A stretch of DNA of 64,000 nt from Candidatus Anderseniibacteriota bacterium (GTDB lineage: Bacteria > Patescibacteriota > JAUYIX01), in assembly GCA_046350855.1 (NCBI GenBank), contig JAXLZM010000002.1, positions 142,103 through 206,102 of the forward strand, in the 5' to 3' direction. Below the pieces are notes generated by a model. That model saw only the letters and a list, made by a program, of their open reading frames with translations. It was not told the DNA's origin and ran no database searches. The translations under genes were made by a program, and so were the position numbers. Of the stretch, positions 37,305 through 54,674 are shown in pieces. Within the stretch, counting starts at the first letter, position 1. Each line of letters begins with the position of its first letter.

Positions 37305-37312
37305 TTGAGCCA

Positions 37313-37852: not shown

Positions 37853-37870
37853 CTTTACAAATAAGAAAAA

Positions 37871-37894
37871 GCACGTTGCCAGGGCGCAACGTGC
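37871..37894. other. perfect 9-bp hairpin GCACGTTGC-CAGGGC-GCAACGTGC flanked by A-runs
   Basis: Read directly; lies at the start of a 456-bp ORF-free region. Confidence 0.3.
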
Positions 37895-38308
37895 AAAAGG
37901 AGAGTGGACAAGGCCCCATTGTACTTAGACGTATTACTTCCCTGAACACACGTCGTCGTCTCGCAAAGCCTCAAAGAGAGTTATAAATAGAGTTCTCTCT
38001 CGACGGTCTCCTGAAGCACAATCTTTTGGCTCAAAGAGTGTGACCGTCTGGCAAACTGCTACAGCGTGCTCTAACACCTCGAGTGGGGACCGTGTCCCAA
38101 AGAAGCAGTTCGTAGTCCTCGCAGGGATGCGAGGGAGCCAGCAGCATGAAGCGAGTGAAGGTGCAGGTGTGGGCCGTAGCTAGGAGCTGCTACTTGCCCT
38201 ACTTGGTCACTGGAAACCGCTCATCGTTCACCTCCTGGTTTCAGTGGCGGGAAAATAGCATACGATTAGCTGATGGTCAAGACCCTCGGTTTTAGGTAGA
38301 GTTTATTC

Positions 38309-38992
38309 ATGAAAACCGCTCTAATCACCGGTACCGGCAAAGGAATAGGTCACGCTACCGCAGATCTTTTTCTCACCAAGGGCTGGCGCGTTATCGGTAC
38401 ATACACGCATGACAAGGGAACCATCGTCTCACCAAACTACAGCGAGATCAAATTAGATCTGCACTCCAAAAAGAGCGTCGCGGATGCGGCGAAAAGTATC
38501 GCCAAACTCGCTCCACAGATCGACGTGCTTATTAACAACGCCGGAATCGCGCCTGACGCTCTCAAGACCAAGGCCGATATGGAAAAAATCCGTGTGACTT
38601 TTGAGGTCAACGTCTTTGGCTTGATCGATCTGACGGAAAAAGTTCTACCGCTGCTCGCGACCGGCAGTCATGTCATCAATGTTAGTTCTCGGTATGGATC
38701 GTTCAACTTTAAGATCGTTGACTCGTATGCCACGGCCTATCGCATGTCAAAGGCCGCGCTCAATATGTACACACGCATGCTGGCTTTTCGGCTTAAAGAT
38801 AAAAAGATGCGTGTATCGGCGATTCATCCAGGCTGGGTAAAAACGGATATGGGTAACATGGGAGTCGGACCACAGGATAAAGCGCGTCCTGATCGGGAAC
38901 CAAAAGATGCCGCTGCGGACATCTACAGGCTTGCCACGAGTGATGTGGAGTCGGGCCAGTTTTGGTTTAAGGGCAGACAGTTTGAGTGGTAA
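38309..38992 (+). CDS. short-chain dehydrogenase/reductase (SDR)
   Basis: ALITGTGKGIGHA Rossmann motif, YxxxK catalytic pair (YRMSK). Confidence 0.8.
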   Translation: MKTALITGTGKGIGHATADLFLTKGWRVIGTYTHDKGTIVSPNYSEIKLDLHSKKSVADAAKSIAKLAPQIDVLINNAGIAPDALKTKADMEKIRVTFEVNVFGLIDLTEKVLPLLATGSHVINVSSRYGSFNFKIVDSYATAYRMSKAALNMYTRMLAFRLKDKKMRVSAIHPGWVKTDMGNMGVGPQDKARPDREPKDAAADIYRLATSDVESGQFWFKGRQFEW

Positions 38993-39001
38993 CAGAATCT
39001 T

Positions 39002-39499
39002 ATGTCCAATAGTTCATCCAACGAAATTAAAGTAGCGGTCGGTGCCTTTATTGCTAACGATAAGGGCCAGGTACTACTGGGCCTGAGAAAAAACGTGGCC
39101 GGAGCGGGCGAATGGCAGGTGCCAGGCGGTCATCTAGAATATGGTGAGACGCTCATCGACGGGGCCCGTAGAGAGGTCAAAGAAGAAACGGGGCTCACAG
39201 TTGGCGAGATGCGACTTGTTTCGGTTATCGACGAGAGCCCAGAGGTTATGGGGCGAACCACTCACTACGTTACCGTAGACTTTTCGGCCCACTACCTCGG
39301 TGGTACCCCCGTTGTTATGGAGCCGCACAAGTGTGGCGGGTGGCAGTGGTTCTCCCTGGATGCGCTGCCCGAGAAACTGTCGCAAGGGATGCGGATGGCG
39401 GTTGAGAACTATAAAAATAAGACCGTTTACAAGGCGAGGGATTTCACGATAAAAACTAAGCACCATGTTACAAAGCACGACTATGCTCAAAGCATTTAG
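39002..39499 (+). CDS. NUDIX hydrolase
   Basis: Nudix box GGHLEYGETLIDGARREVKEETGL. Confidence 0.8.
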   Translation: MSNSSSNEIKVAVGAFIANDKGQVLLGLRKNVAGAGEWQVPGGHLEYGETLIDGARREVKEETGLTVGEMRLVSVIDESPEVMGRTTHYVTVDFSAHYLGGTPVVMEPHKCGGWQWFSLDALPEKLSQGMRMAVENYKNKTVYKARDFTIKTKHHVTKHDYAQSI

Positions 39500-39785
39500 A
39501 AACGCCCTGCTTGCCACGGCCTATATCTCCGGAGTCGCCATGCTTATGTTCTTTGGGCAAAAGCATATCCCTGGCCCGGATACGTTTTTGATGCCGGTCG
39601 CAATGCTGAGCTTGCTGACGTTGTCAGCAGCCGTCATGGGGTATCTCTTTGTGTACCAACCAGCCACGCTTTTTCTCGCCAACAAAAAGGCAGAAGGTGT
39701 AAAGCTGTTCTTCCAGACCGTTGGGATTTTTGCAGGGATTACGACCATCGTTTTTGTGGCAGTCTTTTTGGGGATTGGTCGCTAG
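39465..39785 (+). CDS. small membrane protein (3 TM)
   Basis: ORF with hydrophobic helices; overlaps the NUDIX 3' end. Confidence 0.35.
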   Translation: MLQSTTMLKAFRNALLATAYISGVAMLMFFGQKHIPGPDTFLMPVAMLSLLTLSAAVMGYLFVYQPATLFLANKKAEGVKLFFQTVGIFAGITTIVFVAVFLGIGR

Positions 39786-39830
39786 CCGGTGTACCATTGC
39801 GGCATGTCTAAGTTGTAACCGTTCACCCAC

Positions 39831-40175
39831 ATGAAGCGAGCCGGAATCATACTCATCATCGTTGGCGTCTTTGCAACGCTCTGGGGTGCTTACGCGCTTA
39901 TGATGGCGTTTAATGGCTACACGATGGATACGTCGTACCTGGGTCGGGGGACCGGGCTGGGCTATAGCGTCAGTGCGACGACGGATGCCAATGGCAAATT
40001 GGTTCCGATAACACCGGAACAAGAAGCTGCTGCAGCCGCTGAGTATGATGTGGGCTATCAGGCGAACATCAGGCAGCACAAGCTTCGCGGATCGCTAATG
40101 CTCGGCGCTGGTGTCGTCGCCTTAGCGGTGGGTATTGGTCTCACCGCAGCCAGTAAGCGCAAGTCCAAAAAATAG
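39831..40175 (+). CDS. small membrane protein (2 TM)
   Basis: ORF, ATG start. Confidence 0.4.
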   Translation: MKRAGIILIIVGVFATLWGAYALMMAFNGYTMDTSYLGRGTGLGYSVSATTDANGKLVPITPEQEAAAAAEYDVGYQANIRQHKLRGSLMLGAGVVALAVGIGLTAASKRKSKK

Positions 40176-40752
40176 ATTGAAAAAAGTATTGCTCGGTTTA
40201 GAAAGAGGTTCAGTCAAGTTAGTGCCCCACGATCCACGCTGGGTAAGACTTTTTCAAAAGCAAAAGAAAATACTGAAAGACACATTTGGCGATACGATAC
40301 TTGCGATCGAACACGTCGGCAGCACGGCGATTCCCGGCATGCCCGCAAAGCCCATTATCGATATCGATGTGGGTGTTCGCTCAATGAGGGACATTGTGGC
40401 TATGCGTAAAAAGTTTAAAGCCCTAGGCTATCAGCACCGTCCCTTTGTCCCCGGTGTTACCAAGGGCGAACTCAAAAAACAAGAACTCTTTGTGGTTGGG
40501 TCGGGCGCAAAACGCACGCACCATATCCACATTGCGATATTTGGGAGTAACTATTGGAACAATAATATTCTGTTTCGTGATTACCTACGGGCGCATCCTG
40601 CTCGAGCTAAAAAATATGCTGCGCTCAAATGTCAACTTGTAAAAAAGTTTGCTAACGATCGCAACCGCTACACCAAAGCTAAAGAAAAGTTTATTTCTGC
40701 AACAATACAGTTGGCGCAGAAAAGGCATCCCAAACGGGTTGAGACGCCTTAA
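40135..40752 (+). CDS. GrpB-family nucleotidyltransferase-fold protein (TTG start)
   Basis: VGSTAIPGMPAKPIIDIDVGV motif typical of GrpB/UPF0157. Confidence 0.65.
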   Translation: MVSPQPVSASPKNRLKKVLLGLERGSVKLVPHDPRWVRLFQKQKKILKDTFGDTILAIEHVGSTAIPGMPAKPIIDIDVGVRSMRDIVAMRKKFKALGYQHRPFVPGVTKGELKKQELFVVGSGAKRTHHIHIAIFGSNYWNNNILFRDYLRAHPARAKKYAALKCQLVKKFANDRNRYTKAKEKFISATIQLAQKRHPKRVETP

Positions 40753-40904
40753 AAAAGTTAATCTCGAAATTCAGACAGCAGCGGTGTACTTATCCACAGA
40801 CGATAGTCAAAAAGTGGTCATTTTTTAATCTTTTCTTAAGGTTTAACCCGTACAGTCGTGTTGTTCCATTGGAACAGTGCACGTTGACAGCTAGGAGCAT
40901 CAAG

Positions 40905-41444
40905 ATGAAGCAACTCATCGCGGGCAGCCATGCGGAATGCAAATCCCGCATCTGGTTGCTCGACCTGGATCCGATCATGGTCAAGCTCATGGACAAGAAG
41001 GAAGGAAAGGGCTGGACGCTCGAGCAGGCACTGCTTGCGGTCGGGGAGTACCGGCGGTTTCTCTTCCTGACCGTCACGCGTGAGGAGACCATCGTTCCGA
41101 CCGAGTTCGTGGACGCGGTCTGGCACGCTCACATCCTCGACACCATGAAGTACGCCAAGGACTGCGAGGAGATCTTCGGGTTCTTCTTGCACCACTTCCC
41201 GTACTTCGGGATGCGCGGTGAGGAAGACCAGGCCACCCTGCAGTCGACCTTCCGTGCCAGCGCCGGCATCTACGAGGCGGCCTTCGGGCAGCCGTATTAC
41301 GTCGGGCTGAACGGCGCCAACTGCGGCACGTGCGGTCCCAACGCCTGTGGTTCGTGCGCTGGTTCTGGACTGATCCCTCCACAGAAGGACGTCTTTCGGG
41401 ACGTGGTGCGGTCGGACCATCGTCCCGTACTGGCGATTGCCTGA
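40905..41444 (+). CDS. glycine-rich-domain protein (GRDP/DUF1399-like); high-GC, probably horizontally acquired (ORF opens at TTG 40869)
   Basis: VDAVWHAHILDT motif; GC3-rich codon usage unlike neighbours; AGGAG 7 nt before the ATG at 40905. Confidence 0.6.
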   Translation: MKQLIAGSHAECKSRIWLLDLDPIMVKLMDKKEGKGWTLEQALLAVGEYRRFLFLTVTREETIVPTEFVDAVWHAHILDTMKYAKDCEEIFGFFLHHFPYFGMRGEEDQATLQSTFRASAGIYEAAFGQPYYVGLNGANCGTCGPNACGSCAGSGLIPPQKDVFRDVVRSDHRPVLAIA

Positions 41445-41456
41445 AGCAACTCTATT

Positions 41457-41489
41457 GGGGCTTGGATAACATCCGAGCCCCGCTTTTTT
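41457..41489 (+). terminator. intrinsic terminator
   Basis: GGGGCTTGGAT-AAC-ATCCGAGCCCC then GCTTTTTTG. Confidence 0.6.
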
Positions 41490-41523
41490 GAAAAATAGTT
41501 CTTGAATAGTAGTATCAACTTAT

Positions 41524-42129
41524 ATGGGTCAGCCTGTTATTCGAATTTCATACAATCGGCTTCTGGATCCGTTTTTCCGATCCTTTTTTGAATTACAGCA
41601 TGCCGGAACACCAAAAAACTCAACATATACTTCGCCAGAAGTAGTTTTGAAGAAAGTTTCTGAGTTTATCAATGCATGGAAAAAAAGAGAGTCGGTCTTG
41701 GAGTTTATGCAAGAAACGCTCTCGCTAGAGTTTTATCAAAATGCGATTGATGTGCACGTGGTTGGTTTTATTAAGCACGCGATTAGTTCGCCAATGATCA
41801 TTAGCAGTACGAAGTCTGTTGACGCATTTGTTGATTCTCTTACCCACGAACTTTTACATCGGCTTGTGAGTGATAACACAAAGAAAATTCCCGCTGGCAA
41901 GATTCTGCTTAATCTGTATCCAAAGGAATCGCGACTGTGCCGAAATCATATTGTTGTTCATGCGGTACTCAAAAAAATCTATCTCGAGTTTTTTAAAGAG
42001 GCTGAGCGGTTAACCGCTATTCAAGTGCGCGATAAAAAAGCATCTGCATATATGCGTGCCTGGGAGTTAGTCGATACGTTAGGGGCAGATTCTATAATTG
42101 CGCAATTCAAAAAAGGATATCAAAAATAA
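41524..42129 (+). CDS. hypothetical protein with HExxH motif (LTHELLHRL)
   Basis: ORF at the left edge of the low-GC island. Confidence 0.45.
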   Translation: MGQPVIRISYNRLLDPFFRSFFELQHAGTPKNSTYTSPEVVLKKVSEFINAWKKRESVLEFMQETLSLEFYQNAIDVHVVGFIKHAISSPMIISSTKSVDAFVDSLTHELLHRLVSDNTKKIPAGKILLNLYPKESRLCRNHIVVHAVLKKIYLEFFKEAERLTAIQVRDKKASAYMRAWELVDTLGADSIIAQFKKGYQK

Positions 42130-42138
42130 ATGGCGGCA

Positions 42139-43173
42139 TTAGAGCTTTTTGAGCTCGTATTTTGTTCTGCCAGTGTTAATTACTAAGATCTTCTTGCTGG
42201 CTGGCACCTTGTTTTTGAGTTGCAACAAAAGTGCTAAGCCTGCGATACCTGATGGTTCTGCCTCCACGTTTTGTGACTCAGCAAGCGCCATAGCTTGATC
42301 CAAGTATTTTTCCTGAATTTGCTGCACGCCGGATTCCGGTCCGCATAATCCCGCAAAGCGATAAAACTTAATCCACTGTTCATCAAAATGAACAAACGGC
42401 AAATGTGGTGAGTAGAGTTTTTGTGCTTTACTCTCTGGCGAGGTGGTAGTCGCTCCAATAAAGTTGCACTTGCGGAGCTTGTGCACGTTGCCCCTAAAAC
42501 GCGGATCGTGGTGCTCGGTTGTAACCTCGCGCTTGTTGATGTTGAGAATGTTCTCAAACAAGTTGCCCGTGCCGAACGGAATGAAACAGTAGTCTGGAGA
42601 TGCGTTGATGACCTCGTAGCTGAGCCAGTCGTAAAAGCGGGTGGTTGGCGCGAGGGCTTCATTGGAGGTAATGTCGAAGCCGGTTGGATTATTGGTTAAT
42701 GCCAAAATTTCGCGCCACTGGAGGGATTTTCTCGAGAGATCAGTGTCGTAGAGTTCACAGCCGATTTCTTTGAGGCGGCTTTGGATTTTATCGTCGAGGT
42801 GAGAATCGACTAGTACTTTGAGGTGGGGCAGGAGGTATTTGTTGAGCTGCATTTGTATTGCAAAGGCTGCGGTTCCGGATGAAATAATCGACATATGGGG
42901 GAGGGCACCGCGGAGTTCACCTCGTTTTTTGGATTGTAGAAACTCGCGGTAGGTCACAACGATCTCCCAGGCCATGCGATCCTTGTGCGTGCCAGTTGGG
43001 TTTTTGCTCTCATCTTTGAGCCAGACATTTTTGAATCCGGGCACCGTGATGCGGTAGGTCGGTGTGGCGGGAAACTTGGGATCGTCAGCAGGGAACTCTG
43101 GCCTCTGCGGGTCGTTTTCTGAAGCTACAACGATCGAGCGTAGGATTTTGTTTTCTTTGGTCGTAAGGGTCAC
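42139..43173 (-). CDS. PLP-dependent enzyme, fold type II (threonine synthase/cysteine synthase-like)
   Basis: Lys-containing NPTGTHKDR motif and Gly-rich SSGTAAFA phosphate loop. Confidence 0.65.
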   Translation of the reverse strand: MTLTTKENKILRSIVVASENDPQRPEFPADDPKFPATPTYRITVPGFKNVWLKDESKNPTGTHKDRMAWEIVVTYREFLQSKKRGELRGALPHMSIISSGTAAFAIQMQLNKYLLPHLKVLVDSHLDDKIQSRLKEIGCELYDTDLSRKSLQWREILALTNNPTGFDITSNEALAPTTRFYDWLSYEVINASPDYCFIPFGTGNLFENILNINKREVTTEHHDPRFRGNVHKLRKCNFIGATTTSPESKAQKLYSPHLPFVHFDEQWIKFYRFAGLCGPESGVQQIQEKYLDQAMALAESQNVEAEPSGIAGLALLLQLKNKVPASKKILVINTGRTKYELKKL

Positions 43174-43463
43174 TAGCGCAGGATACTTGGCAAAATATCT
43201 TTTGTCTCGTCATTGATAAATGGCTGAACTGCTTCTCGGCATACTTCAAGTGCGCCACGACCAAAGAGCTGTTCATAGTGGAGCACGAGTTCTTTGATAA
43301 CCCGTTTTGGATCCCCAACAACGGCGACATACTTTTTTATGGGATCAAGCTTGATTCCATAAACTAGCGTTGCCTGCTCCCAGGCAAGTGGTCCGACGAT
43401 CTTTGCTTGTGCCTCAATGATAGCGCTGACAATCGCAGAGCTGATTTTTAAGGGCGGAGTCAT
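43173..43463 (-). CDS. small soluble protein, family A, copy 1 (96 aa)
   Basis: Paralog of 44351..44629 (shared ...I(V/I)GP(L/I)AWE(Q/E)AT... and C-terminal LPSIL(R/K)); translationally coupled to the upstream membrane protein. Confidence 0.5.
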   Translation of the reverse strand: MTPPLKISSAIVSAIIEAQAKIVGPLAWEQATLVYGIKLDPIKKYVAVVGDPKRVIKELVLHYEQLFGRGALEVCREAVQPFINDETKDILPSILR

Positions 43464-43472
43464 TGCAGAATC

Positions 43473-44354
43473 TTATTTTTCTATTGACCACGATTTTTCT
43501 TTTGTGGGTGGTACCCTCAGCCTTTTCGGATTGAATTGTGCCAAGCCAAGCCCCAAGATGAAGAAAGTGACCGTGTAAAGAAAATCTGAAATGCTTCCAT
43601 TAAAGTACGATCCTTTGGTCGTCATATAGACGAACAAAAAGTCTGCGAAATACATCATAAAAAAACCAAGCAACAAAATGGGCATTGCCTTTTTAAAGAT
43701 TCCTCCAATGTATTTTTTCGTGAGCTTATACGTTAGAATCGTAAGACTCAATAGGATCGCGTCTCCAATTGGGTAATAGAAATCAAAGAAAAGCTTAGTT
43801 TTGCCGCCTGCCACATCAATGGTTCCATTACGAGCAACTATAAAAAGTAAATAATAAGAAACCAAAATCACAATTGCCGGTAATAGTGTTACTAACAACT
43901 TTCCGCCAGTTTTCTTTACAGCATATTTGGCTCCTGTACTGCGTAGTAGCAGAACAATACCAATGGTCCAGAATAGGGGACATGAGCCGAAAAAGATGTC
44001 CGCCATCGAAGGATAGGGAACCTCGACTCCCTTAAAAAAAAGATAGTAGTTCCACATAATCATGCCCCCGCCGAAGGCCGCTGTACCTATAGAGATAAAT
44101 ATTAGAGAACGACCTATAGAGCTTGACCACCAACCCCATCCACGAGCACTTGCTAGGCCCAAGAAGCCTCCAATAAGGGGAAGGAGTGCGACACCTGTTA
44201 AGTACGGCTTTATTCCGAACTCAAAGAGTTTTCCTTGAAGAACTCGAGCGTTTCCCGCGCCTACAATGTAATAAAGCCAAAAAAGAGTAGTCAGGCCGAA
44301 AATTAGACAAAGAATTATTATTCCTATACTTACGTTTTTTTGATTGTTTTTCAT
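43473..44354 (-). CDS. 8-TM membrane protein, family B, copy 1 (293 aa)
   Basis: Paralog of 44638..45468; shared motifs FG..., PYPS(M/W)(A/G)D(I/V), (F/L)(Y/G)YPIGDA. Confidence 0.55.
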   Translation of the reverse strand: MKNNQKNVSIGIIILCLIFGLTTLFWLYYIVGAGNARVLQGKLFEFGIKPYLTGVALLPLIGGFLGLASARGWGWWSSSIGRSLIFISIGTAAFGGGMIMWNYYLFFKGVEVPYPSMADIFFGSCPLFWTIGIVLLLRSTGAKYAVKKTGGKLLVTLLPAIVILVSYYLLFIVARNGTIDVAGGKTKLFFDFYYPIGDAILLSLTILTYKLTKKYIGGIFKKAMPILLLGFFMMYFADFLFVYMTTKGSYFNGSISDFLYTVTFFILGLGLAQFNPKRLRVPPTKEKSWSIEK

Positions 44355-44629
44355 TTTAGGATGCTTGGTAACAATTCTTTACTTTCTTCATCAATTAGCG
44401 ACTTAACTGCTGCTCGACTAACTTGTCGTGCAGTTAATCCAAACAAAACTTCAAAATGTCGCACAAGTTCCTTTAGAACAACGGGCGCGACCCCAACAAC
44501 TTGAACTTTTTTACTTTGAAGATCAACCAAAAGCCCTGCCGTTTTTGTTGCCTCTTCCCAAGCAATCGGCCCAATAATCTTTGCATGCTCCTTGATGATA
44601 CTTTCTGCCATTTGATCGGCTAAGTCCAT
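44351..44629 (-). CDS. small soluble protein, family A, copy 2 (92 aa)
   Basis: See copy 1. Confidence 0.5.
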   Translation of the reverse strand: MDLADQMAESIIKEHAKIIGPIAWEEATKTAGLLVDLQSKKVQVVGVAPVVLKELVRHFEVLFGLTARQVSRAAVKSLIDEESKELLPSILK

Positions 44630-44637
44630 CGGAGTAT

Positions 44638-45468
44638 TTATTTGACCTCTTTAAAACGCTGCAATGCTACGCCTAATTGTAACAACGCAAGTGTCATTAC
44701 GAAGTAAGCAAAGAAACAAAGGAAATCGACGCTTCCAGCAACATAGTAGGTCCCGCGACCCGCTTGGTATAAAAATGCAAAATCAGTGCAGTATTGCATG
44801 ATAAGAGCAAAGATTAGAAAGAGTATCGGAGCTCGTATGATGCCTCCCAAGAAGTTGCGTGAGAGCGCAAAAACCAGCAAGGCTGCAGAAACATAAATTG
44901 CATCGCCAATCGGGTACCCCAAATCAAGAAAAGTCCGCAATGGTTGCGACCAATCAGGCGTATAACCTCTTAAGAAAAATATAGTAGTTATGCTGAGCAT
45001 AATTAGCGGTATAACGACAGCTAGAGTTTTGCCTTTAAAGAATCGCAATGATAATTCGTTGCGCATTGCTTTTGCTAATGCGATTGCCCCCAACATGTAT
45101 AAAATAACCGTTCCAAAGTAACCAACGTCGCCCCAGGAAGGATATGGAGTCGTAATGTTTTTTACGTAAACGTAATATTCGTACACGGCCTGCCCGATTA
45201 ATTGAAACCCAAATCCAATTGTTAAGAAGAGAAGAGCCCGGCCAAGTTGGCTTTTCCTGCCGCCCCATTTTTTTGCGATCATCAAGCCACAAACTAAGCC
45301 TGGCCCGACAATTAATGGGTAGAGCAGAGTCAAAAATAAAATTTCTACCCCATTCTCGACTCCACGAATATGAATCGTAACCCACCAAATTGCGATTGCT
45401 ACAAAATAGATCGTACAAATTCTTGCGACATAACTTCGTTTGAGGGTCTCGTACAAGCTTTTTATCAT
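44638..45468 (-). CDS. 8-TM membrane protein, family B, copy 2 (276 aa)
   Basis: See copy 1. Confidence 0.55.
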   Translation of the reverse strand: MIKSLYETLKRSYVARICTIYFVAIAIWWVTIHIRGVENGVEILFLTLLYPLIVGPGLVCGLMIAKKWGGRKSQLGRALLFLTIGFGFQLIGQAVYEYYVYVKNITTPYPSWGDVGYFGTVILYMLGAIALAKAMRNELSLRFFKGKTLAVVIPLIMLSITTIFFLRGYTPDWSQPLRTFLDLGYPIGDAIYVSAALLVFALSRNFLGGIIRAPILFLIFALIMQYCTDFAFLYQAGRGTYYVAGSVDFLCFFAYFVMTLALLQLGVALQRFKEVK

Positions 45469-45491
45469 TGACTTATCTTACTTAATGAACC

Positions 45492-46817
45492 TTAAGAAAA
45501 TGTAGAATTCGAGGCCTCTGGTAAAACGGCTCGTAGTACGGTCCTATACTCATCTGCCTCCGGTATCGAGAGTTGGCCTCCGTGCGCACTCAAGATCCAA
45601 TGTGCGATATCGAGCTCAAGTCCTGTGATTCCTGCTTGTCGATCATCGCGCGTAGGTCGAGATTGTTTAATATCCTCTAACAAAACACGAAGCTGCCGTC
45701 CTTGACGTTGCGGGAGTGCGCTAAAAATAAGATCAATAGAATAGCTTGGTTTGGGCTGGTCATGGTGAAGCTCAACTAGCAAATCTTTTGGTGCCAAACG
45801 CAACGCACGCAATAGCAAGAGCTGCAAAAGCTTATATAGTAGTCCGGCATCGCCACGAATGAGGCTCGGCGTCCCTTCTATGAGAGTTGGACGCCAAATC
45901 AGTCGGCGGTTTTGGGTTTGTGCAAAATCCAGTGCGTACTCTACTGCATCGTCGACCAACAGCTCTAAATCAATCGGCTCAGCTTGAACCTGTATCTTGC
46001 CCGCCTCTGCGCGTGATAAATCCAGAATATGATCGATAAATTTCGTCATCCAAGAGACCTCGGCCTGCACTACCTTAAACTCAGCCGAGTCAGTAAGTCG
46101 CTCTTGCAAAGCAAAGGACATTACAACAACAGGGTTTTTGAGATCATGCGCCAACTGATCGAATTGCAAGGCATTATCGTGATCACGCTGATTAAGACGG
46201 TCATTGAGTCGCTGTAATGATTTTGTACTTTGCTGCAGCCTCGCTTTTATCTGTTCTAGCCGCAGCTGCTCATAGCGTCGCGCTTGAGCCAAGTCAAAGA
46301 GTACTGAGAGTTGATCGGCAAAACGTTGCAATGTTCTTCTGTCCCACTCTGTCCACGGGTCACCATTGTGTTTTGATCCAAAACAAAGAACGGCCTTGCG
46401 GTCATTGCCAATGGCTATTTGTAGTTTGGCATTGAGATTAACTGTACCCAGTTCTTGTAGTTCTAACGGAGCTTGAGTTGTAGTGCCAAGTGTTTTAATA
46501 GTCAGGGGAATAAGCTGCGCAAGAGGGGTAACAAGGATAAGCCGCTGTATCAATCCTTCTAGGAGCTCTTGGTAATCAAAAGAGCCCTTATAAATATGCT
46601 CTCGTGCCAATCGTTCTCCAGTTGGCACAAGTTGTGCCATGACAATTGCAATCAGGCTAATCACGAAAACAATACCTATAAGACGAGCGGTTGGGTATTG
46701 AAACAGTAACTTGTTAGTGCTGTTAAGTAGGATATAACTCGCCGGCCCAAGCAGTACAAGTATGCTGAAGTATAAAGCAATATAACGGCTCACGACGACA
46801 AGTAGATAGCGCTTCAT
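45492..46817 (-). CDS. sensor histidine kinase (membrane anchored), canonical H-box
   Basis: N-terminal TM helices; H-box LAHDLKNPV; HATPase_c motifs; 4-bp overlap with the upstream kinase. Confidence 0.8.
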   Translation of the reverse strand: MKRYLLVVVSRYIALYFSILVLLGPASYILLNSTNKLLFQYPTARLIGIVFVISLIAIVMAQLVPTGERLAREHIYKGSFDYQELLEGLIQRLILVTPLAQLIPLTIKTLGTTTQAPLELQELGTVNLNAKLQIAIGNDRKAVLCFGSKHNGDPWTEWDRRTLQRFADQLSVLFDLAQARRYEQLRLEQIKARLQQSTKSLQRLNDRLNQRDHDNALQFDQLAHDLKNPVVVMSFALQERLTDSAEFKVVQAEVSWMTKFIDHILDLSRAEAGKIQVQAEPIDLELLVDDAVEYALDFAQTQNRRLIWRPTLIEGTPSLIRGDAGLLYKLLQLLLLRALRLAPKDLLVELHHDQPKPSYSIDLIFSALPQRQGRQLRVLLEDIKQSRPTRDDRQAGITGLELDIAHWILSAHGGQLSIPEADEYRTVLRAVLPEASNSTFS

Positions 46818-48265
46818 ACAGAAATTCTTGTACTAACGTGTAATTCAACTAAAAACTGATTGCCTTGTGGTTCAACTCCGTCTTCCATTATTACAATCTG
46901 GGCATTGCCGCCATAGGCCTTTGCTAGCTTACGAACAATAGAAAGGCCAAGGCCGGTGCCTTTTTGGGTTACGCTACTGGCAGTACGGTAAAACGGTTCA
47001 AAAATCAGATCTTGCTCGTCTGGCGAAATTGGCTGGTTTTGATCCGTTACTTTAACCAAAAGACGTCCTGGAGAAACCGTAATACTACAGTCTATTTGAG
47101 TGTTCTTGATCGAATACTTGATAGCGTTTTCTATGAGATTATCGAGAATTTCTTCAAGATGGAGCGGCTTGATCGAAACCTGAGAGCACTTAGGTGAAGC
47201 TTTTACCGTAAGCGAAACGCTTTTTCGTGAGGCCAACTTTGCAAAACGAGTGTGTAACTTCTCAAGAAACATATCTATGTCGATCCATTCAACAAGGGGA
47301 GCGTCAACGATCTCAGTGCCACCAGATTGCTCGAACTCCTTGCTTAAGCTGACTAATTTTGCAACGGATTCCGTGATGGATTGTTGTGCTTCTTTGGGCA
47401 ACTCAATGGCACCACTTTGCACACCCGAAAGAACCACCGTTAACGGCGTGCGTAGTTCTCGGGCAACCGTTTTGAAAAATGCGGTACGATCTTGTAATTT
47501 TTTGTACAAGTTGGCGTTAGCTTGATGCAGCTGTTCTGTTTGTTGTTCAGTCACTAGCTGAACTTCAGCGACATGGTTTTTTCTTGTTCTTTGTAGTTGC
47601 TCTACCTCGGTTTTTGCAGCATACAGTGCGATATCTTTTTGGATACTCTCCACTTCTAGTGGAGTGAAAGCGATATTAAACTTCTTATGTCCCAATACGA
47701 AATAACCGTCTAAAGCAGGCAGGGCAAGAGAGACACGTTGCGGCCCCGTACCCGTTATGGTTCTAAAATGCTGGCCTAGTATGTAGTCCTTACTAATATC
47801 TATCGGATTCGCAAAACGCGTAGATGCAGCTTGTTCTTGTAGGCGGGCAGTTATTTCGTTGAACGCAATACTGCCTTCTGTTAGCGGTGCTTTGATTTTT
47901 CTATTAACCCAGACAACCCCAGTCAGCTGGTACTTTTCTACCAGTGATTGCAAAAAGCTTTTACGATTTGGCTGAATCTCGTGTTGTTTGTAGTCGCGTG
48001 TTATTTGACGACCCCAAAACCTATTCAGCAGTTGCTGGAGCACAATGACGATAAATAAGCCGGCGATAATTTGACTAAATACAGTTGTGCTTGAGTTTTG
48101 TTCAGCCTGATTACTGAGCCCTACCTTAGGCCAAAAAATAATAGTGATCAGGACGACACTTGTGATCGTCGCGAGTACCACATGCCTTGAGAACGTAACA
48201 GCGGTATTAATCGTCCCGTAACGTAGAACAACAAGACAAAGCGAATACAACAGCAAGAGACTCAC
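46814..48265 (-). CDS. sensor histidine kinase-like protein with Arg replacing the phospho-acceptor His (ARELRTPL); N-terminus possibly longer or frameshifted
   Basis: HisKA-like box VARELRTPLTVV, where the consensus is hELRTPL; intact N, G1, G2 boxes (LIENAIKYS, GTGLGLSIV). Confidence 0.7.
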   Translation of the reverse strand: MSLLLLYSLCLVVLRYGTINTAVTFSRHVVLATITSVVLITIIFWPKVGLSNQAEQNSSTTVFSQIIAGLFIVIVLQQLLNRFWGRQITRDYKQHEIQPNRKSFLQSLVEKYQLTGVVWVNRKIKAPLTEGSIAFNEITARLQEQAASTRFANPIDISKDYILGQHFRTITGTGPQRVSLALPALDGYFVLGHKKFNIAFTPLEVESIQKDIALYAAKTEVEQLQRTRKNHVAEVQLVTEQQTEQLHQANANLYKKLQDRTAFFKTVARELRTPLTVVLSGVQSGAIELPKEAQQSITESVAKLVSLSKEFEQSGGTEIVDAPLVEWIDIDMFLEKLHTRFAKLASRKSVSLTVKASPKCSQVSIKPLHLEEILDNLIENAIKYSIKNTQIDCSITVSPGRLLVKVTDQNQPISPDEQDLIFEPFYRTASSVTQKGTGLGLSIVRKLAKAYGGNAQIVIMEDGVEPQGNQFLVELHVSTRISV

Positions 48266-49139
48266 AGAAAGATAGGAATAGTAGTAGGCGTAAAAATCTG
48301 CGATACCAAATGCTGAAATTACTGAAAAAGCGACTGCGTTTACTACGATCGCCAGAAAAAGCGATGCCGATAATTTTCATTGGTCGCCTATCGTTCAGCG
48401 ACATCTTTTTATGTTTGATAAAGAGCGCTATGCTGCAAGTGCCCAAAAGGATGGATAGGCTACTTGTGAAGCACAAAGTAAGGCAACTCGGTTCTGGTGA
48501 CAATATTTTGTATCGAGTAGTCATACTGCAAAACCAGGCCTTGCGGCAGTAAGTTCAGAATAATGGTGCCAGCATTAGTAATGGTGGAAAGTCCGACAAT
48601 AAAAAACGCGATACAGTGCGACTCGAATACGGAGGAAACTTGCCAATAAAAACAAATAAAAAATACAAAAACTCCAATAGGGGACGACGTGCTTAGCGAC
48701 CAAGCCAAAGATATAATCCGGTGGCTGGTGGTAGCCTGATCGTCGGCGGAATGTTAAGAGCGATCCACAGGACGAACGCCAAACAAAAAAGCCTGCCCAT
48801 TGGGAGGGGTAGCGATTTTTGGATTAGACTTTAAATAGCGCAATCGTGAGTAAAGCCGCAACTATCAAAAACGGCGAAAGCGATTATTGCTTGTGTAACG
48901 CTAATACAGTTCAAGCAAGATCCTGAAAGGCTAGACGATCATGGCTTTATCGTCAAGGACTGCAATGAAAGAAAAAATTCATCCTGAAACCGTTCAAAAA
49001 TAGAGAGCGGATGCTGGGTACGGTAATAACCATCTTTATTTTTGAATTTGCGCCGAGCAGGACCAAACTGACAAAAACTTAAGAAAAGGTGAAATCGCTA
49101 TATTTTTGTGTAAAATAGCTCCACGACAAAATCCTGAAT

Positions 49140-50064
49140 CTTGTACGAACTGTTAAGCCTACCCAAGTGCCCTTATCTGAGCTCCCACGACAAAAGCTTG
49201 AACTAACCGATCGACCAGGCATAGAGAGACTGCGAAAAGAGTTTCCGGCGTACTCAGATTTCAATTTTACAAGCCTCTGGTGCTGGATACTAAGAACGAT
49301 CTTACTTTCTCGGTTGTCGAAGGAAATCTTGCAGTAAAGTTTAATGATTATCTAACTGGAGATCCGTTTATTCGCATTCTTAGGTAAAAATCAAGCAGAG
49401 GCCGCAGAAAGGCTACTTCCGAACGGCAGCAGATAGAGGAAGCCATAAGGTTGAATTGCGTTTAGCGCCTGCTGAGTCTGTACAGTCGTTGGATGCTAGT
49501 AAGTATTATATCGCACCAGATGAAAACAACTTTGACTATCTCTTATCAACTGAAGAACTATCCTCATTTAAAGGAAATAAGTGGCGTGCGAAGAGTAACT
49601 TTGTTAACCGCTTCAAAAAAATGTATCGATCAAAAGTCATAGAGTTGGATCTGGGAGACCCATCGACTGAAAAAAAAATTAAAGGTTTATTCGGACTTTG
49701 GGCACAAAAAAAGGCACCCAACTCTAAAGATACAAAAAATGAAGGTATCGCAATTTCAAGGTTGTTGCAGTTCTCAAAACACTTTAAAACTGAATCAATA
49801 GGTTTAGAAATAGAAGGTGAACTGGTTGGTTTTTCAATAAATGAAATAACCTCCCCATCATCAGCTTTATTACATTTTGAAAAGGCTAATCTTAATTTCG
49901 TAGGCGTTTATGCTTACCTCATGCAACAAACCGCAGTCCATTTGCGCAATAAAGGATGTACGATATTAAACTATGAGCAAGATCTTGGGCTGCAAGGCTT
50001 AAAGAAAGCAAAGGCCTCTTATTTCCCCGTATCTTTTTTAAAAAAATACGTTGTTAGCAAATGA
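49140..50064 (+). pseudogene. DUF2156 (MprF C-terminal lysyltransferase-like domain) gene remnant, multiple frame disruptions
   Basis: Family assignment is from pattern memory. N-terminal fragment ...RLRKEFPAYSDFNFTSLWCW... at ~49140-49300 in one frame, two further fragments in other frames, then a 202-aa ORF 49456..50064. Confidence 0.45.
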
Positions 50065-50140
50065 CGCTAGTAAGGAATGCATACAATAATGTAAAATATT
50101 TGCACGAGCATGTGGCACATATTTAAGAGACTCGTTTCTC

Positions 50141-50968
50141 GTGATTGGGCGGCAAAACAGCGTTGCTTATTTTTTAGCGCTGTTTGCATGGTGGTTTCTG
50201 TTACAAGTTTTGTATCAAGGACAAGATGCTGAAAAAAACTTAATTTGGGCGGCCACATATCAGCTCGTTGCTTTGCTTGGTGCTATTTTGGGGAATTTTT
50301 GTTTCGCGGTCTTGGGGTGGAACTAAAAGTGTTTTTGGTAGAGCAATTGGTGCGTTTGCGCTGGGTCTACTTTTCCAAACTATTGGACAAAGCGTCTTTA
50401 GTTTTTACAATTCCATTTTAAAAGTCGAAATTCCCTTATCCTCACTAGCAGATGTCGGTTTTTTTGGAAGCATTCCGTTGCATGTATATGGCGCAATTTC
50501 TTTAGGTAGAGCTTCGGGCGCCGTCGTTTCTCTGCGAAGATTCCGCAACCAACTTTCAGCCTTTTATTACCTGCGGCAGCGCTTTTGATTTCTTATTTAT
50601 TTTTCTTGAGGTTATGAGTTTGATTGGGAGTTCACCATTGCGGGTTTTTCTAGATTTTGCATATCCATTGGGACAAGCAACTTTATGTTTCTTTCGCATT
50701 GCTTGTTTTTATCATTACAAAAAATTCTCGGCGGCATTATGCGTCCCAGGGTACTTTTATTTTGATTGCCCTTTGCAGTACAGTACTTGGCCGATTATAC
50801 TTTCTTTTTCATATTTTCAGATTGATGCAACGAAGTGCAGGACTCTATTTATTTAGCTGCTTATTTGTTTATGTCGTTGGCATTGTTGCAAATAAATCGC
50901 GTTGGCATCCAAAGAGCTGTGATCAGTTTTTGCGAAGTTACAAGACCAGATTGCTGCTAAGATCATAA
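50141..50968 (+). pseudogene. decayed third copy of family B membrane protein
   Basis: Four overlapping ORF fragments that align segment by segment with 44638..45468 (GQSVFSFYN / GQAVYEYY; ADVGFFGS / GDVGYFGT; DFAYPLGQA / DLGYPIGDA). Confidence 0.5.
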
Positions 50969-51211
50969 AAGACCAAGAACTTATAATTGGTCCTTTCGCG
51001 TGGTCCGAAGCAAAGAAGGTGAAGGGCCGTGAGGGTCAACCCAAACACTAATCAAGCAGAAATCTTAGGAGCACCAAAAGTCGTTTTAGAGTCCTTGGTC
51101 AAAAGATACGCGCGCTTATTTGGTGATGCTTCTATCGAAGTTTGCAAGGATGCAGCAAGACCATTTATTGGAAAGTTTCCAAAGGCTGAGTTGCCAGCAA
51201 GTCTTCAATAG
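50923..51211 (+). pseudogene. decayed third copy of family A small protein (start codon lost, internal frameshift/stop at ~51049)
   Basis: ...QDQIAAKIIKDQELIIGPFAWSEAKKV... then stop; C-terminal part in another frame ...LVKRYARLFGDASIEVCKDAARPFIGKFPKAELPASLQ. Confidence 0.45.
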
Positions 51212-51229
51212 TTTTTAGGCTTCTAACTC

Positions 51230-52615
51230 ATGAAGGACCGCAAGAACTCAAAAAGCAGTTCTGATTCCGTCAGTACAGGATCACAGCAGATAAACCGTGA
51301 GCTCTATAAGCGGAACGCCGAATTGGCAGTACGCAACAAAACCCTGGCTCTCCTACGTAAGCTGGATGAGATTTCTTTACGGGCAATTGGGATTCAACCT
51401 ACGGCTCAGGAGATTGCTGGAGCGATCTCCGTCGAGTTTGGGTACGAGATTGTCTCAGTAGCAATCGCCATGCCTGAGAAAAAGGAGTTGCGCTGGCTCG
51501 CGCTCGCGTCTTCGGTACCGACCTACTCTGCTCTTTTTGGACAAGTTATTCCCGGTGAGTCAGATTTTTTGGCAAAAGCGCCTGCTAAAAAACTCGAGGG
51601 TCAGCTCCGCAAGGACACGTTTGTTAAGGGTATCGACAGTTTATTTCCCGATGACCTCAAGCAAAAAATTGGGGCTATCAAGGGTGACGCGATCTCCAGT
51701 ACGCTAGTTTACCCACTTGTTTTTGAGGAAAAGCCGATTGGCATTATTACGTTCAGCGCCATTCGAAATCTGCACGAACTCACTAAATACGAGCACGAAT
51801 CGATCGAGGGCATTGTCAGCCTAACCTCGCTCGCTCTCTACAAGGCAAAGCTTTTTGAGGACTTACAAACGACAACCGAGCAGTTACGCGAGGCCAACCA
51901 CCGACTTAAAGAGCTCATGGAAATCAAGACTCAGTTTTTGCATATTGCATCTCACCAATTGCGCACACCGCTCACGAGTCTCCGCGGCTTCTTAGACATG
52001 CAGGCGAGCGGGGATTTTGACAAGCTCACGCCGGATCGACGTAAAGAGCTCCAAAAAACGATGGCCATGGCTGGCGACCAACTCAATGCGCTGGTCAATG
52101 ATCTTCTTAATGCCATGGAACTTGAAGGTGGTGCGCCAAACATCAAGCCTATCGCAACTGACGTCTGGAAAGTTATCGAGGAAGCCGTCGTCACACTCCA
52201 GATCGCTTTCGACAAAAAGGGCCTCAAACTTGTTGCAAACAAGCCCGCCATTAAATTGCCGCAGATTCTTGCAGATGCCTCGTACCTCCGTCAGGTCTTC
52301 CTCAACTCTCTCGACAACGCGATGAAGTATACGCCCAAAGGCTCAGTCACGATTAGCGCCAAAGTAGCTGGCAAAAACATCGCTATTGACGTCACCGATA
52401 CCGGTATTGGTATCGACCCGCGCGACAAGCCCAAGCTCTTTGGTAAGTTCGTCCGCGGTGGCAATTCGGAGACGCAGCACACCACAGGCAGTGGTCTAGG
52501 ACTCTTTATCATGAAGCAAATCGTCCAGCAGCATCACGGTACGATTGAACTTAGGAGCGATGGCGTAGGCAAGGGGACGACCGTGCACATCGAGCTTCCA
52601 ATCCTTAAAGTCTAA
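51230..52615 (+). CDS. cytoplasmic sensor histidine kinase (GAF-HisKA-HATPase)
   Basis: H-box ASHQLRTPLTSL, N/G boxes, N-terminal GAF-like region. Confidence 0.8.
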   Translation: MKDRKNSKSSSDSVSTGSQQINRELYKRNAELAVRNKTLALLRKLDEISLRAIGIQPTAQEIAGAISVEFGYEIVSVAIAMPEKKELRWLALASSVPTYSALFGQVIPGESDFLAKAPAKKLEGQLRKDTFVKGIDSLFPDDLKQKIGAIKGDAISSTLVYPLVFEEKPIGIITFSAIRNLHELTKYEHESIEGIVSLTSLALYKAKLFEDLQTTTEQLREANHRLKELMEIKTQFLHIASHQLRTPLTSLRGFLDMQASGDFDKLTPDRRKELQKTMAMAGDQLNALVNDLLNAMELEGGAPNIKPIATDVWKVIEEAVVTLQIAFDKKGLKLVANKPAIKLPQILADASYLRQVFLNSLDNAMKYTPKGSVTISAKVAGKNIAIDVTDTGIGIDPRDKPKLFGKFVRGGNSETQHTTGSGLGLFIMKQIVQQHHGTIELRSDGVGKGTTVHIELPILKV

Positions 52616-52618
52616 GCA

Positions 52619-52966
52619 ATGAAGGCCTGGGGTAAATCGATCGCAATCGACTTATATCAATGCGATCACAAAAAAATGATCGATCCGGAAGGGCTTAAGA
52701 CCTTTATCGCTGAACTTATTAAGTCGGTAGACATGGTTGCACATGGACCGTGTTACGTAGAGCGCTTTGGCGAAGGCAAACTCTTGGGGTACTCGGCTAT
52801 GCAATTTATTGAAACTTCTGCAATTACTGTCCATCTAGACGAAGTCGATAGCCGTGCCTTTATTGATCTCTTTAGCTGCAAACAATTTGATGCAAAAAAA
52901 CCAACCGAACTTGCCATCAAATATTTTGGCGCAAAGCAACACAAGTTGACTGAGCTCAACCGCTAG
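52619..52966 (+). CDS. S-adenosylmethionine decarboxylase-like pyruvoyl enzyme (SpeH-type, small form)
   Basis: 115 aa; ...GYSAMQFIETSAITVHLDE... resembles the SpeH self-cleavage region (ES/TS). Confidence 0.55.
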   Translation: MKAWGKSIAIDLYQCDHKKMIDPEGLKTFIAELIKSVDMVAHGPCYVERFGEGKLLGYSAMQFIETSAITVHLDEVDSRAFIDLFSCKQFDAKKPTELAIKYFGAKQHKLTELNR

Positions 52967-52974
52967 CAGATAGT

Positions 52975-53895
52975 GTGGCCATGAATTGGCTGCTCCTCGC
53001 CGTTATCCCACCGCTGCTGTATGCGGTCGTAAACCACTTTGATAAGTATCTCGTGCAGAGATATTTCAAGGGAGCGAGTGTTGGTGCGGTACTTATTTTT
53101 TCGGCGCTCATCGGGATTTTTGTCGCGATTCCTATTGGCATTTTTGTTCCCGAAGTTTTTGACTTGCCTGCTCGGCACTCCGCTCTCATCGTCGCAAACG
53201 GATTTTTGTATCTGTTGGCCAGCCTCCCATACTTTTATGCCCTCTCGAAAGACGAAGCCTCCGTCGTTGTACCTGTTTTTCAGCTCGTGCCCTTCTTTAT
53301 TCTGCTTTTTGCTTTTATATTTTTGGGAGAGACCATTAGTCTAAACGGCCTTCTCGGTGGCGCAGTTGTTGTTTTGGGAGCGGTGTTGATTTCGTTAGAG
53401 CTATCCCACAAAAAAGCTAAGTTCAAACAGAGCGTTTTTTGGCTGATGGTGCTGTCATCCTCACTTTTTGCGCTTAACTTTGTGCTCTTCAAGAATTTAA
53501 ACATCGACAGCACTTTTTGGATCACAAACTTTTGGGAATATGTCGGTTTTGTACTTTTTGCTGCTTTTGCGCTGGTCTGTATCCCGCCATACCGAAGACA
53601 ATTCTTTTCTGTTTTCAAACAAAACAAAAAAACGGTACTCGCGCTTAACGGCATCAACGAAATAATCGCAGTTGCAGCCAAGGCTTCGTTTAACTTTGCG
53701 TCGCTTTTAGCCCCGGTTGCACTCGTTTCTTTTGTTGGCGGGCTTCAACCGCTATTCGTTTTTCTTATTGGAATAGCACTGACGCTGTTCTTCCCTAAAA
53801 TTAGTAAAGAAAACATCGACGCTCGGCATCTAATTCAAAAAATAGTCGCAATTTTGGTGATTTTGGTTGGCGTTTGGATGCTGAGTTCAGCCTAG
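52975..53895 (+). CDS. DMT-superfamily transporter (two EamA domains)
   Basis: 10 TM helices in two repeats. Confidence 0.75.
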   Translation: MAMNWLLLAVIPPLLYAVVNHFDKYLVQRYFKGASVGAVLIFSALIGIFVAIPIGIFVPEVFDLPARHSALIVANGFLYLLASLPYFYALSKDEASVVVPVFQLVPFFILLFAFIFLGETISLNGLLGGAVVVLGAVLISLELSHKKAKFKQSVFWLMVLSSSLFALNFVLFKNLNIDSTFWITNFWEYVGFVLFAAFALVCIPPYRRQFFSVFKQNKKTVLALNGINEIIAVAAKASFNFASLLAPVALVSFVGGLQPLFVFLIGIALTLFFPKISKENIDARHLIQKIVAILVILVGVWMLSSA

Positions 53896-54170
53896 GGAGA
53901 CTCTGCAAAAAGGGCCCTGGGAACCGTGTGGATTACTGCTACTTATACCCTAGCGCCCCAGCCCAAGACCTTGTAGAATAATCAGCAAAAGAGAGGACTT
54001 GCCGGCCAAGCAAAGGCCAACCAGCAGGTTCAACAGGGGAAACAAAAAGCGAACCAAAAGGACTTCCAAGACAGAGAGCTCTTGCGAGTTTGCGCTGTAA
54101 TGAGGCCGGATAAAGAGACCGGCCGCGAGGCAGCAGTTTACTTACTACACTTCCCTCACTTCCCATCCAC

Positions 54171-54674
54171 ATGGCTAGCTCACGTTCTGCCCAACCAACC
54201 GCACTAACCGCTGCCCAACGCGCGGGTGCCAGCACCGCTACCGGTCTGGCCGCCCCTGACATCGAATCCGCCCACTGGATTAACGTCAAAAACAACGGGT
54301 TTGGCTCGCTCACGGGTAAAATCGTCGTAGTGAACTTTTGGACTTACGCCTGTCACCATAGCCAATCGCTCCTCCGTCACCTCTCTGTTTTACAACGCAC
54401 CTACCGGCGCCATCCCGTCCAGATTATCGGGGTGCACACGCCGGAGTTTTTGTTTGAAGCAGATGTGGACAACGTTAAACGCGCCGTCCGGGACTTTCGC
54501 ATCAATTGGCCAGTCGCGGTCGACAACGATTACGAGAACTTCAACCGCTTTGGCGTGCGCTTTTGGCCGACCACCGTCTTGATCGATGCCGATGGTCGCG
54601 TAGCCGGGCGCTTTGTCGGGGCCGGGAGCTTCCCGGATCTGGCCCGCAGCATCCATGTTATACTGCCGCGGTAA
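54171..54674 (+). CDS. thioredoxin-fold (TlpA/redoxin-like) protein with CxxS-type motif
   Basis: VVNFWTYACHHSQ where WCxxC is expected; redoxin-like length. Confidence 0.5.
   Translation: MASSRSAQPTALTAAQRAGASTATGLAAPDIESAHWINVKNNGFGSLTGKIVVVNFWTYACHHSQSLLRHLSVLQRTYRRHPVQIIGVHTPEFLFEADVDNVKRAVRDFRINWPVAVDNDYENFNRFGVRFWPTTVLIDADGRVAGRFVGAGSFPDLARSIHVILPR

Follow-up and report, generated by a model that had tools for sequence, protein, structure and literature searches.

We analysed a 64,000-nucleotide stretch of contig JAXLZM010000002.1 from Candidatus Anderseniibacteriota bacterium (hereafter, the window), with attention to the AT-rich block at 41.5-53.9 kb. The block is best read as an AT-shifted accessory locus, i.e., a flexible genomic island occupying a fixed slot between uvrA and a thioredoxin-like (Trx-like) gene and carrying a proposed sensor circuit built from two protein families, here called A and B. 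We give this reading a probability of roughly 0.6. Its behaviour as a flexible island is partly shown and partly inferred, and horizontal exchange, recurrent at a fixed hotspot and drawing on the gene pool of the Candidate Phyla Radiation (CPR), is the most likely source of the AT shift. The preliminary description of this DNA had proposed a horizontally acquired island undergoing decay. The composition, the accessory character and the partial decay stand, whereas the discrete and recent acquisition does not: the block is older and more locus-bound than first proposed, and is not a fresh mobile island.

The block has a GC content of 0.440, against 0.553 (standard deviation 0.021) for typical sequence sampled as forty 1-kb windows (Mann-Whitney p = 2.2e-7), and its tetranucleotide usage, compared with the rest of the window, drops from a correlation of about 0.9 to r = 0.56-0.75. 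These sliding GC and tetranucleotide analyses agree with the AT-richness originally noticed at 41500-53900. The shift falls chiefly on third codon positions: the GC content at these positions (GC3) is 0.30-0.58 in block genes and 0.58-0.71 in uvrA and the right-flank genes. Given the wide spread of GC3 among its genes (0.58 for the genes called PALP and HK3 below, 0.33 for DUF2156 and 0.30 for B2), the block is itself compositionally non-uniform. Of the two borders first proposed, the right one, at about 53.9 kb, is indeed sharp. The left one, placed at 41.45 kb, is a local edge only, with GC falling from 0.6 to 0.4 just past a terminator, while the anomalous stretch begins at 36.3 kb, right after uvrA.

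The block consists of two divergent operons, within which neighbouring genes overlap or sit at most 23 nt apart. The left operon (minus strand) reads HK2-HK1-A2-B2-A1-B1-PLP enzyme (PALP), and the right operon (plus strand) reads DUF2156-A3-B3-HK3-SpeD homolog-EamA, where HK denotes a histidine kinase and PLP pyridoxal phosphate. The features are listed below; L001 is an independent Logan contig (SRR26348421) covering positions 41609-50569 of the window, and other L numbers are further genomes or contigs.

41456-41482, plus strand: intrinsic-terminator-like hairpin with a 12-pair stem (7 GC pairs), followed by CTTTTTTGAA, the T run reaching 41492.
41524-42129, plus strand: HExxH (HELLH) protein of 201 aa, convergent with the left operon.
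42139-43173, minus strand: PLP fold-II enzyme of 344 aa, last gene of the left operon (Pfam PALP, E = 1.7e-15).
43173-43463, minus strand: B1, soluble partner domain of 96 aa, 46% identical to B2 (E = 1e-24).
43473-44354, minus strand: A1, membrane module of 293 aa with 8 transmembrane (TM) helices (AlphaFold2, AF2, pLDDT 93, pTM 0.90).
44351-44629, minus strand: B2, 92 aa (AF2 pLDDT 92; alpha-alpha-beta-beta-alpha-alpha order).
44638-45468, minus strand: A2, 276 aa, 31% identical to A1 (E = 4e-32).
45492-46817, minus strand: HK1, membrane histidine kinase (Pfam HisKA; ATP-binding domain degenerate).
46814-48265, minus strand: intact 3' two-thirds of HK2 (Pfam HisKA and HATPase_c).
48266-48912 (approximate), minus strand: decayed 5' third of HK2, encoding HisKA_7TM in the intact allele and carrying frameshifting indels in the window.
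48913-49163: divergent intergenic region between the operons, placed from L001 gene coordinates and about 7% diverged.
49164-50064, plus strand: stand-alone DUF2156 / LPG_synthase_C gene, its 5' 290 nt frameshifted, leaving a 202-aa open reading frame (ORF) at 49456-50064.
50110-50930, plus strand: A3 pseudogene (tblastn, 33% to A2; at least 4 in-frame stops).
50935-51208, plus strand: B3 pseudogene (tblastn match split over frames 1 and 2; one frameshift).
51230-52615, plus strand: HK3, soluble histidine kinase of 461 aa (Pfam HisKA and HATPase_c).
52619-52966, plus strand: SpeD homolog, a small pyruvoyl-type decarboxylase of the AdoMetDC/SpeD class 1b fold (Pfam AdoMet_dc, E = 1.1e-16).
52975-53895, plus strand: EamA-family transporter (Pfam; 69% to L008), last gene before the sharp GC rise.
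54171-54674, plus strand: Trx-like gene, the right-flank anchor (Pfam; native GC).

The gene calls made earlier from the letters (PLP fold-II enzyme, kinases, DUF2156, AdoMet_dc-fold protein, EamA and HExxH) were all recovered with Pfam or by motif, including the three histidine kinases. The B/A modules hold up as well: A1 and A2, and likewise B1 and B2, are true paralogs, and A3 and B3 are recognised by tblastn only.

No Pfam or NCBIfam model matches A or B, profile searches of both against PDB sequences came back empty, and Foldseek against the PDB returned nothing at E <= 0.001. Both families are large. A profile search of 1.84 billion cluster representatives (50% identity) yielded 5213 members of the A family at E <= 1e-3, and the B family has 1812 database matches by profile, all of about 92-101 aa. 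All family members bearing organism names, for A and for B, are CPR/Patescibacteria; among the A-fusion proteins, a name is given for three, again all Patescibacteria. A1 is identical to NCBI protein U0517_02440 (Candidatus Andersenbacteria bacterium), and A2 has orthologs in L116 (59%), L117 (51%) and L009 (40%).

The role of A is suggested by the proteins in which it is fused to other domains. A precedes PAS-HisKA-HATPase_c in P0226, and is joined to NB-ARC/STAND NTPases in P0185 and P0204, to TrmB winged helix-turn-helix domains in P0163 and P0249, and to HisKA_7TM in P0184; an A-MazG-like fusion is also seen, and P0182 and P0191 are likewise among the A-fusion proteins. Given such diverse transmitter and output domains, A would be a signalling input (sensor) module, and the architectures suggest that A-B acts as a sensor module. 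In P0164 and P0167, B is fused to the C-terminus of A (hhalign probability 99%), and as a free protein B has no signal peptide; hence, both termini of A are probably cytoplasmic. On that topology, the invariant E-V-P-Y-P-S-x-x-D loop of A would face outward.

Membrane sensor kinases with polytopic input domains, such as HisKA_7TM (PF16927), offer the nearest known arrangement: A is likewise polytopic and precedes PAS-HisKA-HATPase_c in P0226, elsewhere it is encoded beside short or soluble kinases, and HK2 is itself a HisKA_7TM kinase. A differs, however, from HisKA_7TM in having 8 helices, no detectable sequence relation and, usually, the form of a separate protein paired with B, i.e., a split arrangement. 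The identification of A as a HisKA_7TM domain was rejected, with no Pfam match and hhalign E-values of 0.24 against the L009 7TM protein and 0.36 against the HK2 N-terminus.

Among the kinases themselves, HK2 and HK3 combine an H-box with an ATP-binding domain (HisKA and HATPase_c), whereas HK1 has HisKA only: its H-box is present and HATPase_c is undetected by Pfam. HK1 overlaps the HK2 stop by 4 nt, has orthologs in L117 (58%) and L009 (37%), and may be a pseudokinase partner phosphorylated in trans by HK2. HK3 is 71% identical to the same-locus gene of L008 and 39% identical to a GAF kinase of L034, in which the region homologous to the part of HK3 N-terminal to HisKA is a GAF domain.

In other CPR genomes, the neighbours of A-B are amine- or amino-acid-modifying enzymes, with a kinase usually downstream. 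These enzymes include methyltransferases (MT) of the NNMT/PNMT type and the guanidinoacetate type, an Orn/Arg decarboxylase, the SpeD homolog, DUF2156 and PALP. The gene order is MT-MT-A-B-HK in L002 and L005, EamA-AdoMet_dc-DUF2156-A-B-HK(GAF) in L034, and EamA-Orn/Arg decarboxylase-A-B...HK-HK in L035, where the PLP-dependent Orn/Arg decarboxylase fills the place equivalent to that of the SpeD homolog. In L003 the order is MT-A-B. L034 is a low-GC Andersenbacteria genome (GC 0.41) in which the right-arm cassette lies at a different locus; its identities to the window proteins are 57% for AdoMet_dc, 40% for DUF2156, 54% for A (to A3) and 39% for HK(GAF).

The enzyme beside HK3 had been taken for a SpeH-like S-adenosylmethionine (AdoMet) decarboxylase. 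The fold, the processing Ser and the catalytic His and Cys are in place, with equivalents of S63, H68 and C83 of the Thermotoga maritima enzyme (1TLU) kept and E62 replaced by T. The equivalog level, in contrast, is not reached: the protein scores 38.2 bits against TIGR03330, whose cut-off is 75.65, and phmmer against the AdoMetDC entries of the PDB gave an E-value of only 0.05. The window protein thus resembles AdoMetDC/SpeD class 1b enzymes and their neofunctionalised offshoots in its small pyruvoyl-enzyme fold, in these three residues and in its occurrence in CPR, with no speE beside it in the window, and differs in its sub-equivalog score and in a Thr instead of a Glu before the processing Ser. 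SpeD homologs acting on ornithine or arginine have been documented in CPR (PMC10407285). The window enzyme may therefore have a substrate other than AdoMet.

The DUF2156 fragment matches PF09924 (E = 5e-25) over profile positions 90-297 only. With the C-terminal lysyl-phosphatidylglycerol synthase domain of MprF, the family shares a full-length LPG_synthase_C match in L001 and L034; unlike MprF, DUF2156 is a stand-alone soluble aminoacyl-transferase-like protein (284-301 aa) with no flippase or TM part, and adjoins A-B instead of lipid-synthesis genes. The PLP enzyme has the lysine motif NPTGTHKDR, matches threonine-synthase and cysteine-synthase models weakly and far under their cut-offs, and holds an equivalent position in L116 and L117.

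In the circuit that we propose, A would be the 8-TM input (sensor) module and B its cytoplasmic partner domain, and the A-B modules would pass their signal to the neighbouring histidine kinases. An amine- or polyamine-like compound, likely the ligand or the output of the circuit, would be made, modified or moved by EamA and the enzymes encoded alongside. A3-B3 is inactivated in this genome, and so are the promoter region between the operons and the 5' ends of HK2 and of DUF2156.

Compatible with any account of the island is another assignment, in which A-B is a transporter or membrane enzyme for the amine of its neighbours and the kinases are co-located regulators. In every context A adjoins small-molecule enzymes (methyltransferases, decarboxylases, DUF2156, PALP); in L003 no kinase was called in the five genes after B; and A conserves acidic and aromatic residues, which are typical of amine-binding membrane proteins. 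The fusions of A to histidine-kinase, STAND NTPase and TrmB domains, however, typify input domains rather than transporters, and the cassette already has EamA as a transporter. We therefore consider a transporter or enzyme possible, yet clearly the lesser expectation.

Relatives were found by scanning one genome per GTDB species with a right-flank protein, the NTP-transferase-like gene that follows the Trx-like gene serving as bait. In L008, the Trx-like and NTP-transferase-like genes are immediately preceded by HK3 (71% amino-acid identity), the SpeD homolog (68%) and EamA (69%). The 10 kb before the same flank in L009 (Ca. Andersenbacteria STL-PAT3) hold homologs of A2 and HK1, a full-length homolog of HK2 and a further kinase. 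The flank proteins are 55-85% identical to those of the window in L008 and 46-50% in L009, and the Trx-like gene matches its counterparts in L007 and L008 at 84-85% identity and the one in L009 at 48%. The contig of L007 ends 842 bp upstream of its Trx-like gene, and its first 500 bp are AT-shifted (0.47). Two short contigs of GC 0.45 cover the left arm: L116 has A2-B2-A1-B1-PALP, collinear with the window, and L117 has HK1-A2-B2-PALP followed by a convergent HExxH gene, i.e., one A-B module against two in the window and in L116. The HELLH protein of the window is 62% identical to its L117 homolog, which has the same convergent position after PALP. According to the preliminary description, an acquired island would be refuted if all related genomes carried the block at this locus; such presence was largely found, for parts of the block in L008 and L009, none of the relatives being of the same genus.

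The compositional shift and the gene content can be followed at the same locus. In L009, GC3 is 0.44-0.58 in the block genes, compared with 0.79-0.89 for the flanks; L008 is mildly shifted (GC 0.45-0.47 against 0.53-0.55); and in L017, which is more distant and of high GC, kinases lie upstream of the same gene with no AT shift. Content turns over: in L009 the place of SpeD-EamA is taken by an ALDH-like gene and by a 125-aa single-domain response regulator (L009:8516-8893, plus strand), which comes after an HK3-like kinase, at the position of the SpeD homolog. In L008, a GC-rich Mu Gam-like gene (2361-2966, minus strand; GC3 0.81) sits exactly at the EamA|Trx-like junction, which is the right border of the block. 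In L012, a very distant Patescibacteria genome of 27% GC, uvrA abuts the right-flank gene homolog directly (7227-10906). The interval from uvrA to the flank (36.3-54.1 kb) may be an ancient expandable slot. A metagenome scan with the Trx-like protein gave only matches of at most 45% identity, from unrelated organisms, of no use for synteny.

A native, vertically inherited locus would explain why relatives share the position and the functional theme, its AT-richness coming from a local regime such as weak codon selection in poorly expressed genes, less GC-biased gene conversion or AT-biased mutation, with no transfer. The identity of HK3-SpeD-EamA to L008 (68-71%) resembles that of the flank genes, and the shift in L008 is mostly not at third positions. 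On the other hand, GC3 in L009 lies 30-40 points under the flanks, which is very large for expression effects alone, and the relatives differ in gene content. Moreover, no gene of L009 is as close to A3 and the SpeD homolog as those of the L034 cassette, which occupies another locus (54% and 57%), and the block forms a mosaic of identity and divergence with L001 that is taken as recombination. We hence regard purely vertical descent as unlikely.

This mosaic was seen by comparing the window with L001. The two are 100% identical over 41609-48233 (6.6 kb), which takes in HK2 as far as 48233, and over 49490-50061. All 107 differences, i.e., 77 substitutions (51 transitions and 26 transversions) and 30 indel events, fall in two patches, 48234-49489 and 50062-50569, which together make up about 2 kb at about 7% divergence. 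Besides A3, the patches take in the divergent promoter and the 5' ends of HK2 and of DUF2156; the intergenic region is within the segment most diverged from L001. Sequencing error was rejected as the cause of the pseudogenes, given the 2:1 transition bias, the occurrence of only 12 of 30 indels in homopolymers and the confinement to two patches. Since about 7% divergence stands next to 6.6 kb of identity, neutral decay in situ is not possible; the patches must stem from recombination with an allele that had decayed before, from local hypermutation or from an assembly path through mixed strains. They look like an imported or hypermutated decayed allele, and the alternation of 0% and about 7% divergence is suggestive of allelic replacement by homologous recombination (one contig).

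Three decayed genes had been named: the DUF2156 remnant, A3 and B3. All three are real, and a fourth was overlooked, in the 5' third of HK2. In L001, HK2 is open for 698 aa, has an N-terminal HisKA_7TM (E = 2.8e-6) and can be aligned over the whole length with the 676-aa L009 kinase (E = 4e-96); judging by its reading frames, the window HK2 has lost this predicted 7TM membrane sensor to frameshifts. L001 also has an intact DUF2156 (301 aa) and an A3 that stays open for its first 154 codons, as far as the contig reaches. The decay is therefore strain-specific and not a property of the locus, given that the near-identical L001 keeps HK2 and DUF2156 intact and A3 open.

Signals of mobility were sought throughout the slot. 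Among all ORFs of at least 90 aa at 36.3-54.1 kb, Pfam found no integrase, transposase or recombinase, and there is no unassigned gap in this interval big enough for an integrase-type gene. A search for direct or inverted repeats gave only chance-level short matches and the signal of the A2/A3 paralogs, with no pair bracketing 41.5/53.9 or 36.3/54.1 kb. The sole tRNA in the window is at 63175-63264, away from the block. Neither direct repeats nor a tRNA gene flank the block, and sporadic presence among relatives was not seen, with orthologs at the same junction in the distant relatives L008 and L009. Genomic islands are common in Patescibacteria (PMC12455944). With these, and with classical islands of the integrase/tRNA type, the block shares a compositional anomaly, accessory genes and partial decay; it differs from them in having no integrase, transposase, tRNA target or direct repeats, and in not being sporadic among the relatives examined.

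These observations bear on a single, recent acquisition of a 12.4-kb island that is now decaying. Such an event would account for the strong shift in GC and GC3 with its sharp borders, for the accessory genes and for the pseudogenes, and low-GC CPR with similar cassettes could have been donors (L034 at GC 0.41; L116 and L117 at 0.45). Orthologs at the same junction in L008 and L009 and the lack of an integrase, att site or tRNA are contrary to it, the GC3 range of 0.30-0.58 speaks against a single origin, and the decay is limited to about 2 kb and missing from a near-identical strain. A recent acquisition is thus quite improbable. An assembly or binning chimera, in which a low-GC segment of another organism was joined to this metagenome-assembled genome, is hardly credible: L001 starts at 41609, inside the block, which leaves the left junction with no independent support, and L007 breaks near its Trx-like gene, yet independent assemblies have the EamA-then-Trx-like junction (L008) and kinases upstream of the flank (L009), and the start of the L007 contig is AT-shifted too.

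The reading as a flexible island with a sensor circuit is, in turn, weakened by several points. The informative relatives are three only (L007, L008 and L009), all distant, with flank proteins 46-85% identical. The left junction (41.5 kb) and the stretch from there to uvrA lie outside all independent contigs and syntenic relatives. In L008, GC3 is 0.51-0.54 in the block genes against 0.54-0.58, and the shift there is in part one of amino-acid composition. Recurrent exchange was deduced from composition. As for the circuit, the sensor role of A-B is drawn from domain architecture and gene context, and the fold leads are non-significant, for A towards 7TM receptors (E >= 0.1, TM-score about 0.4) and for B towards the N-terminal part of H-NOX (E > 1). 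Finally, tblastn with two receiver sequences, a check of low sensitivity, found no receiver domain in the window, in line with the absence of a response regulator reported at the outset.

Flexible islands kept at conserved positions by homologous recombination have been described (PMC4033161, PMC10872708). The block shares with these the same slot, a related theme, changing genes and an atypical composition, as well as the lack of integrases and att sites and the recombination-like mosaicism of strain alleles. Classical flexible islands, however, are known from within-species comparisons of marine and freshwater bacteria in culture, and most of them encode surface glycans, whereas the block was compared across distant CPR species and encodes signal transduction and amine metabolism.

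The sequence to the left of the block, at 36.3-40.8 kb, is likewise atypical (GC 0.41-0.56, tetranucleotide r 0.73-0.80). The left extension encodes, according to Pfam, a 205-aa unknown protein, a glyoxalase-like protein, a histidine phosphatase, an SDR, a NUDIX protein, two small membrane proteins and GrpB. Its features are as follows.

36318-41444, plus strand: left extension of the atypical stretch (GC, tetranucleotide r, Pfam matches).
40869-41444, plus strand: high-GC gene of 191 aa (GC 0.61, GC3 0.82), with a weak GRDP-like match only.

The second of these is the foreign-looking gene that had been pointed out on the left flank; its GC3 is above that of the genome's typical genes, and it sits between two AT-shifted stretches.

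Elsewhere in the window, a second AT-shifted patch was observed at 28200-30500 (GC 0.42-0.48), between a GH18 and CWB2 wall protein and uvrC. One of the proteins encoded there (371 aa) has no Pfam match, and another (273 aa) has a CarboxypepD_reg-like domain. In the last part of the window (63000-64000), GC goes down to 0.45 directly after the tRNA-Ser(GGA) at 63175-63264, which could mark the start of another island at a tRNA.

The remaining database searches were negative. A whole-window Rfam scan gave no match. The unknown proteins had no match in PADLOC or PHROGs either, which leaves a defence-island or prophage reading without support. The 201-aa HELLH protein has no match in Pfam, NCBIfam, PADLOC or PHROGs, and exact-sequence look-ups of the 411-aa flank protein and of HK3 returned no record.

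The block is an ordinary genomic island of a known kind, and the A-B modules are its most novel content. What makes the locus useful is that the AT shift is kept at the same position across background GC of 0.52-0.65 while the content turns over, which offers a case for studying the exchange of CPR accessory cassettes without mobile-element machinery. A bolder and rather doubtful proposal is that A-B is a widespread, undescribed split membrane receptor of CPR, which would sense a self-made, exported amine or polyamine derivative and couple to histidine kinases, STAND NTPases or TrmB regulators, its cassettes being swapped at a fixed hotspot. The compound would be supplied by the decarboxylase, methyltransferase or PLP enzyme together with the EamA exporter. 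If true, these ultra-small episymbiotic bacteria would possess a signalling circuit that is autoinducer-like or directed at the host. To our knowledge, little is known of how CPR bacteria sense their surroundings or hosts, and the recurrent cassette of a sensor plus amine enzymes is a concrete and testable entry into this question.

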